This document shows, piece by piece, positions 34,012-39,111 of a DNA stretch of 39,803 nucleotides. The notes below the pieces were generated by a model that saw only the letters and a program-made list of their open reading frames with translations, ran no database searches and was not told the DNA's origin. The translations under genes were made by a program, and so were the position numbers. Source of the DNA: Escherichia phage HC13. The stretch lies in the sequence record OL362276.1; one strand, given 5' to 3'. The first letter of the stretch is position 1. The number at the start of each line of letters is the position of its first letter.

Positions 34012-36192
34012 ATGTCCACGATTACACAATTCCCTTCAGGAAACACTCAGTACAGGATAGAGTTCGACTACCTAGCCAGAACGTTTGTTGTTGTTACGCT
34101 GGTGAATAGCTCTAACCCTACCCTGAACCGTGTACTGGAAGTTGGTAGAGATTACCGATTCCTTAATCCAACGATGATTGAGATGTTGGCTGACCAATCA
34201 GGTTTCGACATCGTTCGTATTCACCGTCAGACTGGAACTGACTTAGTGGTAGACTTCAGGAATGGCTCAGTGTTGACAGCTAGTGACCTGACCAATTCAG
34301 AGCTTCAGGCTATCCATATTGCAGAAGAAGGTCGAGACCAAACGGTTGACTTAGCGAAGGAATATGCCGATGCTGCTGGTAGCTCTGCGGGCAACGCTAA
34401 GGATAGCGAGGACGAAGCACGCCGAATCGCTGCGAGTATCAAGGCAGCTGGTAAAATTGGCTATATTACCCGTCGCTCCTTCGAGAAAGGCTTCAACGTT
34501 ACAACATGGAACGAGGTCCTGCTATGGGAAGAGGATGGTGATTATTACCGCTGGGATGGTACGCTTCCAAAGAACGTTCCCGCTGGTTCAACTCCTGAAT
34601 CATCTGGTGGTATTGGGCTGAGTGCGTGGGTTAGTGTTGGTGATGCGTCACTTAGAGCAAACCTGTCTGATAGTGATGGCGCTAAATACATAGGCAGTGG
34701 AGAAAGGACATTACTTGAGCACAACAATGATGTTTTGCACTCAAAAGACTTCCCAACACTGCAGGCAGCTATAGATGCATCTTTGCAAAAAAATGATCTA
34801 CTGGTGTCTCCTGGAAATTATACTGAAAAAGTTACTATTGGAAACGCGCAGTTAAAAGGTGTTGGCGGGGCCACGGTACTAAAAACTCCGGCAGACTTTA
34901 CAAACACTGTTCAGGTTAATTTAGCTACACCTCATTGGCAATTCCGCCATAGTGGTGGTTTTGCTATAGATGGTTCCGGGACAACCGGGGTCGTAGGTAT
35001 TAGTTTTGACCCGTCAGACCAATATTCCGGACGTCATAATTTTAGTGATGTATACATCCACAACATCAACAAGGCCATTCAGAAGCCTTCCGGGAACATC
35101 GGCAATACTTGGAGAAATATTGGGATATCTACGTGTGATTGGGGGTATTACGCGATTAGTGGCTCAGAGACGCATTGCGGGGCCGATACCCTCTACAATA
35201 TCCACTTCGATGGCATCTCCACCTATGCAGTCTATCTAGACGGCACTGTCGATAATGGCGGGGTTGGCGCATGGTGGCTTAAAGACTCCATTATTGAGGC
35301 TTCCGGAGGTGGCGGGATATACTTAAAAAGTAAATCGGGCGACTGTCCTACATCTCCATGCGGGGTATCCAATATATGGATGGAAGCGATCGCAACATCA
35401 CCGGCTGTTCAGGTAGACGGCGTGGCGCAAAAACCGCGAGTTCTCAAGTTGGTAGACACAGCGATATTCTTTGCTGAGTATTCTTATCTCAACAACATCG
35501 AGCTATCCAACTCCAACTTAGTAACTTATGGTTGCCGTTTTGACAACGCTGATGGCAATCAGGATATTGTCGTGGATGCACAAAGTACCATTGTAGCCCA
35601 TGACGTGTATTTAAACGGCAGTTCTGGAAAGGACGTTATTGTGGAGTCCGTAGCATCGCAATCTGCAACGATAGCTACCACAAACTTATCTCTGAGGGGC
35701 AACTTAACAAGAGGGAGAGTATTTAATACGCCGACAGGGAATAAATTAATGGCTATCACATTTGACTCAGGTAGCCATAATTTTTCTGGCAGCGGCACCG
35801 TTAACGGTTCGACTGTATCTGACGGACTTCACGCCGCTACATGTACCGAATTTTCATTCCCCGGAGCCGGTTTATATGAAATGGTAGCGACAAGAACAAC
35901 CATTACATCCGGTAGATGGTACGTGTGGGGAGTTAACTCACGCCTACAATCTGGCTCGGCGGATATTAGTATAACGTCAGGTATTACCATGGGTAGTGTT
36001 TACACAAAGCAGGGGGAGTGGATTAGCACTTTCGGTGTAGGAAAGGCATCTACCACTGGCACTGTAGCGCTATACGTTTCCACAGGAGGAGGTTCGGGAG
36101 CTACGGTCAGATTCAGTGACTTTTTCATCGCTGAGTTTACGACGCAAGCTCAGGCTTTAGCTTTCGCCAATTCAAGGATGTCGTTATCATAA
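34012..36192 (+). CDS. 17: Tail fibre/tailspike: T7 gp17-like N-terminal anchor fused to a divergent C-terminal receptor-binding domain
   Basis: N-terminal about 150 aa (YRIEFDYLARTFVVVTL..., RFLNPT, LVVDFRNGSVLTASDL, QAIHIAEEGRD) match the T7 gp17 N-terminus. From about residue 225 the sequence is unrelated to T7, Gly/Ser/Thr/Asn-rich and AT-richer at the nucleotide level. Confidence 0.85.
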   Translation: MSTITQFPSGNTQYRIEFDYLARTFVVVTLVNSSNPTLNRVLEVGRDYRFLNPTMIEMLADQSGFDIVRIHRQTGTDLVVDFRNGSVLTASDLTNSELQAIHIAEEGRDQTVDLAKEYADAAGSSAGNAKDSEDEARRIAASIKAAGKIGYITRRSFEKGFNVTTWNEVLLWEEDGDYYRWDGTLPKNVPAGSTPESSGGIGLSAWVSVGDASLRANLSDSDGAKYIGSGERTLLEHNNDVLHSKDFPTLQAAIDASLQKNDLLVSPGNYTEKVTIGNAQLKGVGGATVLKTPADFTNTVQVNLATPHWQFRHSGGFAIDGSGTTGVVGISFDPSDQYSGRHNFSDVYIHNINKAIQKPSGNIGNTWRNIGISTCDWGYYAISGSETHCGADTLYNIHFDGISTYAVYLDGTVDNGGVGAWWLKDSIIEASGGGGIYLKSKSGDCPTSPCGVSNIWMEAIATSPAVQVDGVAQKPRVLKLVDTAIFFAEYSYLNNIELSNSNLVTYGCRFDNADGNQDIVVDAQSTIVAHDVYLNGSSGKDVIVESVASQSATIATTNLSLRGNLTRGRVFNTPTGNKLMAITFDSGSHNFSGSGTVNGSTVSDGLHAATCTEFSFPGAGLYEMVATRTTITSGRWYVWGVNSRLQSGSADISITSGITMGSVYTKQGEWISTFGVGKASTTGTVALYVSTGGGSGATVRFSDFFIAEFTTQAQALAFANSRMSLS

Positions 36193-36336
36193 AAACAACC
36201 TCAGCCGAATCGGGTTATTTATCATCAGAACGGTATTGAATCATCGAAGGTTGTGGAGGTAGAGGCTAACTACACGTTGACCAACGTATGATAACAACTT
36301 TGGGTCACGGACGACCCGCTTTAAACTGGAGGTTTT

Positions 36337-36531
36337 ATGATTGAGTTAGACTTCAAGAATGAGGTCCTCAAAGCCTCGCCTATCGTCGGGACCGCTGCGG
36401 CTGATGGTGCCAGTCGGTTCTTCTTTGGGCTAACGCTCAACGAATGGTTCTACGTCGCTGCTATCGCGTACACCGTGGTGCAGATTGGCGTCCTAATTTA
36501 CAAGACGATTAAGAGCGGAGGTAAGACATGA
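36337..36531 (+). CDS. 17.5: Class II holin (gene 17.5)
   Basis: Aligns with T7 holin (LDFKNEVLKASPIVGT, FFFGLTLNEWFYVAAIAYTVVQIG). Confidence 0.9.
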   Translation: MIELDFKNEVLKASPIVGTAAADGASRFFFGLTLNEWFYVAAIAYTVVQIGVLIYKTIKSGGKT

Positions 36532-36791
36532 CGCAGATGGACTTAGAGAAGTTCCTGTTAATGCTGGACACAGAACGTGCTAGACTAATGCTTCAAGACC
36601 TGCGGGATGACTCTAAGCGTTCGCCCCAGCTCTACAACGCCATTGAGAAGCTACTGGCTCGTCACAACTTCGTGCTAAGCAAGGTGTCTGTTGACGAGAA
36701 GACGCTCGCTGATATGGAGGCCCTGAACGCAGAGTACGATAAGGTGCTCTCCGCTACGGAAGATAATGACACTGGATATGGAGTGCAGTAA
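36528..36791 (+). CDS. 18: Terminase small subunit (gene 18)
   Basis: Aligns with T7 gp18 as recalled (FLLMLDTERARLMLQDL, RSPQLYNAIEKLL). Confidence 0.8.
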   Translation: MTQMDLEKFLLMLDTERARLMLQDLRDDSKRSPQLYNAIEKLLARHNFVLSKVSVDEKTLADMEALNAEYDKVLSATEDNDTGYGVQ

Positions 36792-36800
36792 ATCTATTAA

Positions 36801-36855
36801 GTGTTAGACTCAAGGTCATTACTGTATGTAGTGGCCTTTATGGTTAACACTAACT
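36801..36855 (+). promoter_or_regulatory. Putative RNase III processing hairpin (R18.5-like)
   Basis: GUGUUAGAC...AAGGUCAU / GUGGCCUU...GGUUAACAC. Same upper stem as 6022 and 13150; lower stem differs but still pairs (covariation). Confidence 0.45.
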
Positions 36856-36901
36856 AGTGGAGGAGACTCTACGTGAAATCTGATAAACCGGGAGGGCAAC
36901 T

Positions 36902-37351
36902 ATGCTCGAATTTTTAAAGAGAGCGGCTCCGTGGTTACTTGCAGCAGTGATGTTTGCTGGTGGCTACCACACCGCTAACAATAAGTGGGAGGCTAAGGTC
37001 AATGCAGAATACACCACGAATCTTAAGGCATCGGAGGATACAAGACTTGCTGTCCAAGCTGAAGTCAACAAAGTGTCCAAACGGTTTCAGGACGAAATGT
37101 CCTCGCTGGAAGGCAGCACTGATAGGATTATTGCTGACCTTCAGTCTGACAATAAGCGGTTGCGCATCCGAGTCAAACCAACGAGTGGAACCACGCAAAG
37201 TGACGGTCGATGCTTCATTGATGGTTACGCCGAACTTGACGAACGAGATGCTAAACGTCTTATCGCCATCGGAGTGAAAGGAGACAAGTGGATTAAGGCC
37301 CTTCAGGACACTGTGAGAGCCTTGCAGCAAGATAAGGAGGTGAAGCATTGA
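36902..37351 (+). CDS. 18.5: Rz-like i-spanin (gene 18.5)
   Basis: Aligns with T7 gp18.5 (MLEFL, N-terminal [45 protein letters not shown]). Confidence 0.88.
37047..37277 (+). CDS. Candidate Rz1-like o-spanin lipoprotein embedded in Rz (+1 frame); start codon uncertain
   Basis: Embedded +1-frame ORF with signal-like [23 protein letters not shown] and lipobox Cys codon at 37161-37163. No in-frame ATG near the signal, so TTG at 37047 is only a guess. The mature part is not proline-rich. Confidence 0.4.
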   Translation: MLSKLKSTKCPNGFRTKCPRWKAALIGLLLTFSLTISGCASESNQRVEPRKVTVDASLMVTPNLTNEMLNVLSPSE

Positions 37352-39111
37352 GTAAAGACTTAGTGGCGCGTCAGGCGCTAATGACTGCACGTATGAAGGC
37401 AGACTTCGTGTTCTTCATCTTCGTTCTCTGGAAAGCACTAAGCCTTCCGGTTCCAACCCGCTGCCAGATAGATATGTGTAAGAAGCTGGCTGCTGGTGAT
37501 AATCGCCGCTTCATCCTTCAGGCTTTCCGTGGTATTGGCAAGTCATTTCTGACCTGTGGCTTTGTGGTCTGGAAGCTATGGAACAACCCAGACTTGAAGT
37601 TCATGATTGTGTCGGCCTCAAAGGAGCGAGCCGATGCTAACTCCATCTTCATCAAGCGAATCATCGACCTCATGCCTCAGCTTCAGGAACTCAAACCTAA
37701 GCAGGGACAGCGAGATGCGGTTATTAGCTTCGACGTGGGACCTGCCAAGCCAGACCACTCACCTTCGGTTAAGTCCGTTGGTATCACTGGTCAGTTGACT
37801 GGTAGTCGTGCTGACATCCTGATTGCCGATGACGTGGAGGTTCCGAACAACTCAGCGACTCAGGCTGCACGAGACCGTCTATCAGAGCTTGTGAAAGAGT
37901 TCGACGCTATCCTGAAGCCGGGAGGTACGATCATCTATCTGGGTACTCCTCAGAACGAGATGACCCTGTACCGTGAGCTGGAAGGTCGTGGGTACACCAC
38001 TACTATCTGGCCCGCTCGTTATCCACGCGACAGGAAGGACTGGCAGTCTTACGGCGACCGTCTGGCTCCTATGCTTCAGGAAGAGCTGGAAGAGGACCCT
38101 GAGTCCTTCTACTGGCGTCCGACTGATGAAGTACGCTTCGATGATACGGACCTGAAGGAACGTGAGCTGTCCTACGGTAAAGCTGGCTTCGCTCTACAGT
38201 TCATGCTTAACCCGAACCTGAGTGATGCCGAGAAGTACCCTCTGAAGCTCCGTGACCTTATCGTAGCCGACTTGGACCCAGCGTCCAGCCCAATGGTCTA
38301 CCAATGGTTGCCGAACCCTCAGAACAAGCGTGAGGACGTTCCTAACGTTGGACTCATGGGTGACTCGTACCACACGTATCAGACTGTAGGTTCTGCCTTC
38401 AGTTCTTACACCCAGAAGATTCTGGTCATTGACCCTAGTGGTCGTGGTAAGGATGAGACTGGTTATGCGGTACTGTACCAGCTCAACGGCTACATCTTCG
38501 CTATGGAAGTTGGTGGTATGCGTGGTGGGTATGAAGACTCTACGCTGGAAGCACTGGCTAAGATTGGCCGTAAGTGGAAGGTCAACGAATACGTCATTGA
38601 GGGTAACTTCGGTGATGGTATGTACCTTGAGCTATTCAAGCCTGTAGCGGCCCGTATACATCCTGCTGCTGTAACTGAAGTGAAGAGTAAGGGTCAGAAA
38701 GAACTCCGCATCTGTGACGTTCTGGAGCCTATCATGGGGTCTCACCGACTTATCATCAACGCTGCTGCTATCGTCCAAGACTACCAGTCGGCCTCTGATA
38801 AGGATGGTGTTCGTAACCCTATCTACTCTCTCTTCTACCAGATGACACGTATCTCTCGTGAACGTGGAGCCTTGGCACACGATGACCGACTTGATGCGCT
38901 GGCTATCGGTGTACAGTTCTTCGTTGAGTCTATGGCTAAGGATGCCAACAAAGGCGAACGTGAAGTCACTGAGGAGTGGCTGGAGGAACAGATGGAGAAC
39001 CCACGGAAAGGCTTCGAGTCCATCCACACTGAGTTCTGGGACAATGGGGTCCGGGTAACTCACGATACGGACGACGAGCTGGGACTAGGGTCATACGTTA
39101 CGTTCCACTAG
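37348..39111 (+). CDS. 19: Terminase large subunit (gene 19)
   Basis: Collinear with T7 gp19 ([93 protein letters not shown]). TTG start with SD AAGGAGG seven nt upstream, overlapping the Rz stop. Confidence 0.96.

Follow-up and report, generated by a model that had tools for sequence, protein, structure and literature searches.

The window analyzed here is the complete 39,803-nt sequence of Escherichia phage HC13 (OL362276.1), the genome of a T7-like Kayfunavirus (Autographiviridae, Studiervirinae). Across 1.4 kb around the gene of the outer spanin subunit (o-spanin), it is 99.1% identical to Escherichia phage 6925 and 92% to 96% identical to many other Kayfunavirus genomes, with EcoDS1 at 93%. 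The genes and signals considered below are the following:

34012–36192, tail fibre gene
36337–36531, plus strand, class II holin of the T7 type, homologue of gp17.5 (Pfam Phage_holin_2_2, E = 3.7e-22), the lysis partner, encoded in the same block of late genes
36528–36791, small terminase gp18 (terS)
36902–37351, plus strand, i-spanin Rz, homologue of gp18.5, 149 aa (PHROG 1327 "Rz-like spanin", E = 9.6e-61)
36987–36992, plus strand, Shine-Dalgarno (SD) motif GGGAGG of the o-spanin, 9 nt upstream of ATG 37002 and written in Rz codons TGG-GAG-G
37002–37277, plus strand, o-spanin gene, homologue of Rz1/gp18.7, 91 aa and a stop codon, offset +1 from the Rz frame, taken from the conserved ATG
37005–37094, plus strand, N-terminal leader extension of 30 residues, basic, with no detectable sequence constraint
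37033–37037 and 37047–37049, plus strand, alternative initiation site (GGAGG and TTG), 38 codons upstream of the Cys, which may serve as a secondary start
37095–37160, plus strand, core of the lipoprotein signal peptide as read from the sequence: n-region KCPRWK, 14-residue h-region and lipobox I-S-G before the Cys
37161–37274, plus strand, mature o-spanin, 38 aa, with the predicted lipidated Cys at +1, Ala at +2, no further Cys and 3 Pro
from 37348, large terminase (terL)

The Rz/gp18.5 protein begins, as read from its translation, with a hydrophobic anchor of 14 residues; its score against Pfam Phage_lysis (23.1 bits) lies slightly below the cut-off of 25.4, and in phage 6925, which is 99% identical, it is annotated as an Rz-like lysis protein. 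The o-spanin gene is wholly contained in the Rz gene, where the +1 frame is open from 36951 to the stop codon at 37275–37277. The locus combines an i-spanin partner with a late lysis gene context that includes a holin, as expected of a two-component spanin.

An earlier note on this DNA had proposed that the +1 frame within Rz encodes an Rz1-like o-spanin lipoprotein, a proposal that our profile searches and a comparison of related loci fully support. The frame matches Pfam PF17531 (O_Spanin_T7, "Spanin, outer lipoprotein subunit T7-like virus") with 89.7 bits (E = 1.2e-25, cut-off 25) over profile positions 3–58 of 59, the match starting at the KCPRWK n-region, and PHROG 4306 ("Rz-like spanin") with E = 3.1e-37, o-spanin residues 2–88 corresponding to profile positions 1–83 of 84. 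Both profiles place it among the T7-type o-spanins. No NCBIfam model matched either spanin. The same +1 embedding in the i-spanin gene is found in EcoDS1, SP7, Pipis, SH3, and T7. Since a search for protein homologues yielded only 7 clusters, embedded genes being rarely called, the comparison was based on DNA loci collected from IMG/VR, GenBank phages, and metagenomes, which gave 101 unique sequences; these represent Kayfunavirus, T7, T3/Yersinia-like, Klebsiella-phage, and further lineages. Locus L113 and Serratia phage Seera (L100) were left out of the analysis of the o-spanin frame. The +1 frame is kept in all 101 unique loci. A DNA search matched about 970 Studiervirinae records; similarity to the distant clades (T7, T3, Klebsiella phages) is confined to 37101–37269, beginning at about the KCPRWK n-region. 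The identity of the o-spanin, its signals and their conservation can thus be read directly from the sequences compared.

The lipoprotein signal and lipobox that had been noticed in this frame are confirmed: the positively charged n-region KCPRWK and an uncharged h-region lead to ISG and a Cys encoded at 37161–37163, conforming, as read from the translation, to the lipobox pattern [LVI][ASTVI][GAS]C, which is conserved in all loci. The VDASLM motif is invariant in both alignments (A1 and A2), and each of the 50 unique mature sequences contains just one Cys. Lipoproteins lacking Asp, the Lol-avoidance residue, at position +2 are sorted to the outer membrane. In the window, position +2 is occupied by Ala, as it is in 36 of the 50 unique mature sequences; Asp occurs there in none (0/50), as expected of outer membrane lipoproteins. 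One general expectation is not borne out. In the PROSITE rule PS51257, the lipobox Cys lies at about residues 15–35, whereas here it is residue 54 counted from ATG 37002 and residue 39 counted from TTG 37047, outside the usual distance, and LipoP rejected the full-length EcoDS1 and K1F sequences according to the SpaninDataBase curators. This is a limit of generic predictors that is common to the whole T7 family, and membership in the family is not excluded thereby.

The mature region had also been described as unusually poor in proline for an Rz1. This holds only against Rz1 of lambda (10 Pro in 41 residues) and not within the protein's own family: with 3 Pro in 38 residues (7.9%), the HC13 o-spanin is close to the mean of 8.6% for the 50 unique mature sequences (range 5.6% to 16.7%; 11.4% in T7), so that low proline content is a family character rather than an anomaly. 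Consistently, proline-richness is not universal among o-spanin families (Kongari et al. 2018, PMC6139136). Rz1 of lambda resembles the HC13 gene in being a lipoprotein gene lying wholly in the +1 frame of Rz and in having a short mature product (41 versus 38 aa), and by inference the 2 proteins share the same role in disrupting the outer membrane (mechanism: PMC6139136, PMC5295617). However, they have no detectable sequence homology and belong to different Pfam families. Lambda Rz1 has a 19-residue signal peptide, a penta-proline and a second Cys, which forms intermolecular disulfides; the HC13 protein has a leader of 53 (or 38) residues and no extra Cys. Because it lacks both the proline run in the center and the second Cys, the HC13 o-spanin is an analogue, and not a member, of the lambda Rz1 family.

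Closer counterparts are found among T7-like phages. Gp18.7 of K1F and EcoDS1 belongs to the same genus and shares with the HC13 gene the +1 embedding 100 nt into gp18.5, a nearly identical protein (P0001, 91 aa, 96% identity), the 38-aa mature part, the lipobox TISG|C, and the same ATG/SD and TTG alternatives; the proteins differ by only a few substitutions (e.g., NQRVEP against KLRVEP), whereas the SD motif before the TTG is a strong GGAGG in the window and GGAAG in K1F. Gene 18.7 of T7 (83 aa), the namesake of the Pfam family, likewise lies in the +1 frame of gene 18.5, with a distal ATG behind AGGAGG (dG −11.6 kcal/mol) 48 codons before the Cys, a basic extension, the motifs ISGC, CASES, and VD(A/S)SLM, and 1 Cys in the mature part. 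It differs in a leader that is 5 codons shorter, in an internal ATG at codon −31 and a TTG at codon −21 relative to the Cys, both absent from the window, and in the mature part, which has 4 Pro in 35 residues and is about 60% to 65% similar. The SpaninDataBase lists K1F and EcoDS1 as embedded spanin pairs, with the i-spanins assigned to the "T7" family and the o-spanins to the "K11" family, and flags a "too long signal sequence" for K1F, EcoDS1, K11, and Kvp1; according to its curators, LipoP rejects the full-length o-spanins of EcoDS1 and K1F, and the start had to be changed (Kongari et al. 2018, PMC6139136). The HC13 o-spanin is therefore an ordinary member of an already catalogued family, and both the gene and the oddity of its long leader were already known.

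The question that the locus raises is where translation of the o-spanin begins. The earlier note found no obvious ATG start, placing the only in-frame ATG at 36954 with an implausible leader of 60 residues. These statements do not hold: the codon at 36954 is TTG, which would give a leader of 69 residues, and the ATG at 36950 belongs to Rz. The one in-frame ATG lies at 37002, 53 codons upstream of the Cys, and gives a leader of 53 residues. It is preceded at 9-nt spacing by GGGAGG, with an anti-SD dG of −10.2 kcal/mol; the corresponding values for accepted genes of the window are −10.0 (holin), −10.8 (terS), −10.8 (Rz), −11.6 (tail fibre), and −13.5 (terL), and 1.6% of background positions reach −9.5. 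The equivalent start, 100 nt into Rz and giving 91 aa, is annotated for gp18.7 or the o-spanin in the GenBank records of EcoDS1, SP7, Pipis, and SH3, of which the Pipis record (Center for Phage Technology) carries an explicit RBS feature for the o-spanin. The Asn codon of Rz that contributes the "AT" of this ATG is always AAT, in a genome where Asn is AAC 77% of the time; the SD and ATG 37002 are both written into Rz by synonymous choices, GAG being used for Glu and the rare AAT, before a codon beginning with G, for Asn.

The signals at this position recur throughout the family. All but one of the 101 unique loci carry an SD-backed start 48, 52, or 53 codons ahead of the lipobox Cys (97 ATG, 2 GTG, 1 TTG), with SD motifs of the AGGAGG/GGAGG type and a mean dG of −11.7 (range −13.3 to −8.8). 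By contrast, the best downstream alternative start has a mean dG of −3.2 and reaches −8 only in ten Kayfunavirus sequences, in which GGAGG precedes TTG at codon −38. In T7, the distal ATG has a dG of −11.6, while the internal ATG at −31 and the TTG at −21 reach −2.1 and −1.6, respectively, and in Ebrios and locus L027 the distal GTG is the sole ATG, GTG, or TTG upstream of position −12. Where Rz carries an Asn-to-Arg or Asn-to-Ile change at the start site, the o-spanin codon becomes GTG or TTG. No in-frame stop separates the distal start from the Cys in any of the 101 loci, and the nearest stop lies 1 to 3 codons upstream of the distal start in 47 of 100 loci, stops upstream of this start occurring at the rate expected from the Rz amino-acid sequence. 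Two limits apply to these figures. Part of the conservation of the SD and ATG is inherited from Rz, since both sit in the conserved Rz motif KW[EK]..N[AE]EY, and the probability that the extension is open by chance given the Rz protein sequence is 0.13 to 0.70 per clade (0.13 for the lineage of the window), so that stop avoidance is only moderate per lineage, the lineages moreover being non-independent.

Pectobacterium phage Q19 (L098, MK290739.2, locus 403–684) represents the sole lineage found to lack the distal start, the codon there being Asn. A new ATG at codon −34 relative to the Cys, backed by an SD of its own, AAGAGGAG (dG −9.1), is the annotated start there; the o-spanin start has been relocated within the overlapping gene. 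Because Q19 lost the distal start and uses the ATG at −34, the long extension is dispensable. At the other extreme, the +1 frame is open for 100 to 155 codons upstream of the Cys in many of the Klebsiella-phage relatives (L061–L084), and at least one record, that of Klebsiella phage Kund-ULIP47, has a 142-aa "Rz1-like protein" (P0005) annotated from an ATG far upstream, the annotation probably extending the gene too far.

Collectively, the frame is best read as the embedded o-spanin gene (gp18.7, Rz1 type) of a Kayfunavirus, paired with Rz/gp18.5 and most likely initiated at ATG 37002 by GGGAGG at 36987–36992, a reading to which we assign a probability of about three in four. The comparative evidence favors the distal ATG 37002, although the worry about an implausibly long leader was legitimate and had been raised before by the SpaninDataBase. 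A literature search for a mapped gp18.7 start or T7 start-site profiling yielded no initiation-site experiment for any family member, and no experimental paper on gp18.7 of a Kayfunavirus was found. What the present comparison adds to the known picture is an argument, drawn from the whole family, that conservation lies with the distal, SD-backed start.

The nearer TTG and CTG codons to which the earlier note pointed are indeed in frame (TTG 37047, CTG 37050 and 37059), and the first of them offers the main alternative, which we consider unlikely: the o-spanin would be initiated chiefly at TTG 37047 (or CTG 37050), giving a precursor of 76 (or 75) residues with a signal peptide of 38 (or 37), and the upstream ATG and SD would be kept only by the coding constraints on Rz. 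The TTG has a GGAGG of its own 9 nt upstream, the dG of which (−9.5) is nearly as strong as that of the distal SD, and TTG starts are used in this genome, as in terL. LipoP hits for EcoDS1 and K1F were obtained in the SpaninDataBase only after the start had been moved to this site, the 74-aa o-spanin of Penshu1 (P0003) has its annotated start at the corresponding site, and the leader upstream of it is free of protein-level constraint. However, among the 20 unique Kayfunavirus sequences the proximal SD varies in its Glu codon (GAG in 10, GAA in 10, roughly the genomic usage of 60:40), and dG drops from −9.5 to −3.5 with GAA, whereas all 20 have GAG in the distal SD. Furthermore, the TTG is limited to core Kayfunavirus, so that other clades would each need a different SD-less start (in T7, at −31 or −21, with dG of about −2), Ebrios and L027 have no near start at all, and in no locus does a stop codon separate the 2 candidate starts. 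Initiation at TTG 37047 would also leave the long-leader anomaly in place, because a 38-residue signal peptide is still above the usual range for lipoproteins. The choice has no effect on the mature protein, as either precursor gives the same 38-residue lipoprotein, and TTG 37047 may add a second, shorter precursor in HC13.

If ATG 37002 is the start, the length of the leader calls for an explanation, a 53-residue lipoprotein signal peptide being far outside the usual range. The extension could be functional, slowing or timing Sec targeting or processing by signal peptidase II and thereby tuning when the spanin becomes active, but we regard this as improbable, even though the extension is open and retained at 48 to 53 codons in 100 of the 101 unique loci from several genera. 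Synonymous diversity of Rz is 0.235 before ATG 37002 and 0.233 over the leader, compared with 0.129 where Rz overlaps the signal-peptide core and mature o-spanin and 0.332 beyond the stop codon of the o-spanin; a protein-level constraint on the leader was rejected on these grounds. Selection on its basic charge was rejected as well: the net charge of +7 compares with 6.97 ± 1.23 expected from the Rz protein sequence, and in 10 clade representatives the observed charge is recovered when Rz is resampled with synonymous codons and the frame is required to stay open. In addition, the sequence of the extension is poorly conserved between clades, and the leader is shortened to 34 residues in the Q19 lineage. 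It is improbable that T7-like o-spanins are truly made with lipoprotein signal peptides of 48 to 53 residues in which a basic extension of about 30 residues modulates the kinetics of export or processing, and thus the timing or stoichiometry of the spanin; if they were, these signal peptides would be among the longest of bacterial-type lipoproteins and beyond the range of standard predictors. We instead take the extension to be translated yet otherwise neutral, a by-product of the sites in Rz that could accommodate an SD and a start codon, and the absence of selection on the leader beyond the Rz constraints would also fit a leader that is not translated. That 37002–37277 is a chance, unexpressed open reading frame in Rz has nothing specific in its favor beyond the general points that embedded open reading frames are often artefacts and that most sister records leave this frame unannotated, and it is effectively refuted by conservation, namely the Pfam PF17531 and PHROG 4306 matches, the lipobox and VDASLM motif kept across 101 unique loci, the halving of Rz synonymous variation exactly over the signal-peptide core and mature part, and the restriction of DNA similarity with distant clades to 37101–37269.

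With ATG 37002 as the preferred start, we infer the actual start usage, processing and function of the HC13 o-spanin as follows. Ribosomes directed by GGGAGG 36987–36992 would start at ATG 37002 and make a 91-residue prolipoprotein, of which the first 30 or so residues would be the basic, sequence-unconstrained by-product of the overlapping Rz frame, followed by KCPRWK, the h-region, and ISG|C. By analogy with general lipoprotein biogenesis and with lambda Rz/Rz1, export by Sec, lipidation by Lgt, and cleavage by signal peptidase II before the Cys at 37161 would yield the 38-residue lipoprotein, which, having Ala at +2, is predicted to be sorted to the outer membrane. Its conserved C-terminal half (VDASLM...LxVLS) presumably binds the periplasmic end of Rz/gp18.5 to form the spanin, and, once holin and endolysin have acted, the complex would disrupt or fuse the outer membrane. 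Spanin function and the biology of lysis are unchanged by the choice of start, because the mature protein is identical.

The choice does matter for annotation. Embedded o-spanin genes are overlooked in most deposited genomes, including that of phage 6925, which is 99% identical, and even expert curation is inconsistent on starts: public records give 91 aa (EcoDS1 and Pipis in GenBank), 76 or 75 aa (SpaninDataBase), 74 aa (Penshu1), and 57 aa (NCBI bacterial assemblies). A rule for the family would be to take the SD-backed start 48 to 53 codons upstream of the lipobox Cys, and generic lipoprotein predictors can be seen to fail on T7-type o-spanins for a systematic reason. Two 57-aa proteins (P0004, P0007), annotated as "Rz1-like spanin outer membrane subunit" from an SD-less codon at −21, are attributed to Micrococcus luteus and Staphylococcus argensis; they lie on contigs of 232 and 368 bp, are most similar to the Klebsiella-phage clade, and look like fragments of enterobacterial T7-like phages contaminating Gram-positive assemblies.

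Several further observations concern the neighborhood of Rz. In the intergenic region between terS and Rz, positions 36800–36851 can form a long but imperfect hairpin with a core stem of 11 bp (AAGGUCAUUAC/GUAGUGGCCUU), and the 114-nt intergenic RNA folds with −33.5 kcal/mol (z = −2.8 versus shuffles). An Rfam scan of 36200–37500, which includes the hairpin, matched no family; the position of the hairpin corresponds to that of the R18.5 RNase III processing site of T7. A candidate phage promoter just 5′ of Rz (TTAACACTAACTAGTGGAG) was rejected as a repeated promoter motif, as it occurs only once in the window. On the minus strand, an open reading frame at 36935–37390 (151 aa, GTG start) spans nearly the whole Rz gene and, having no match in PHROG, was treated as a mechanical open reading frame. 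At the other end of Rz, the essential terL gene of the window appears to start at TTG 37348, behind a very strong SD, AAGGAGGT (dG −13.5), and overlaps the Rz stop codon (TTGA); terL of phage 6925 is annotated from the same position. Some relatives carry an extra small open reading frame of 162 to 171 nt and unknown product between Rz and terL (EcoDS1, L001 1346–1507; SP7, L002 1345–1515), and Yersinia phage fPS-64 has a homing endonuclease gene there (L099 740–1135), whereas in the window Rz directly adjoins terL.
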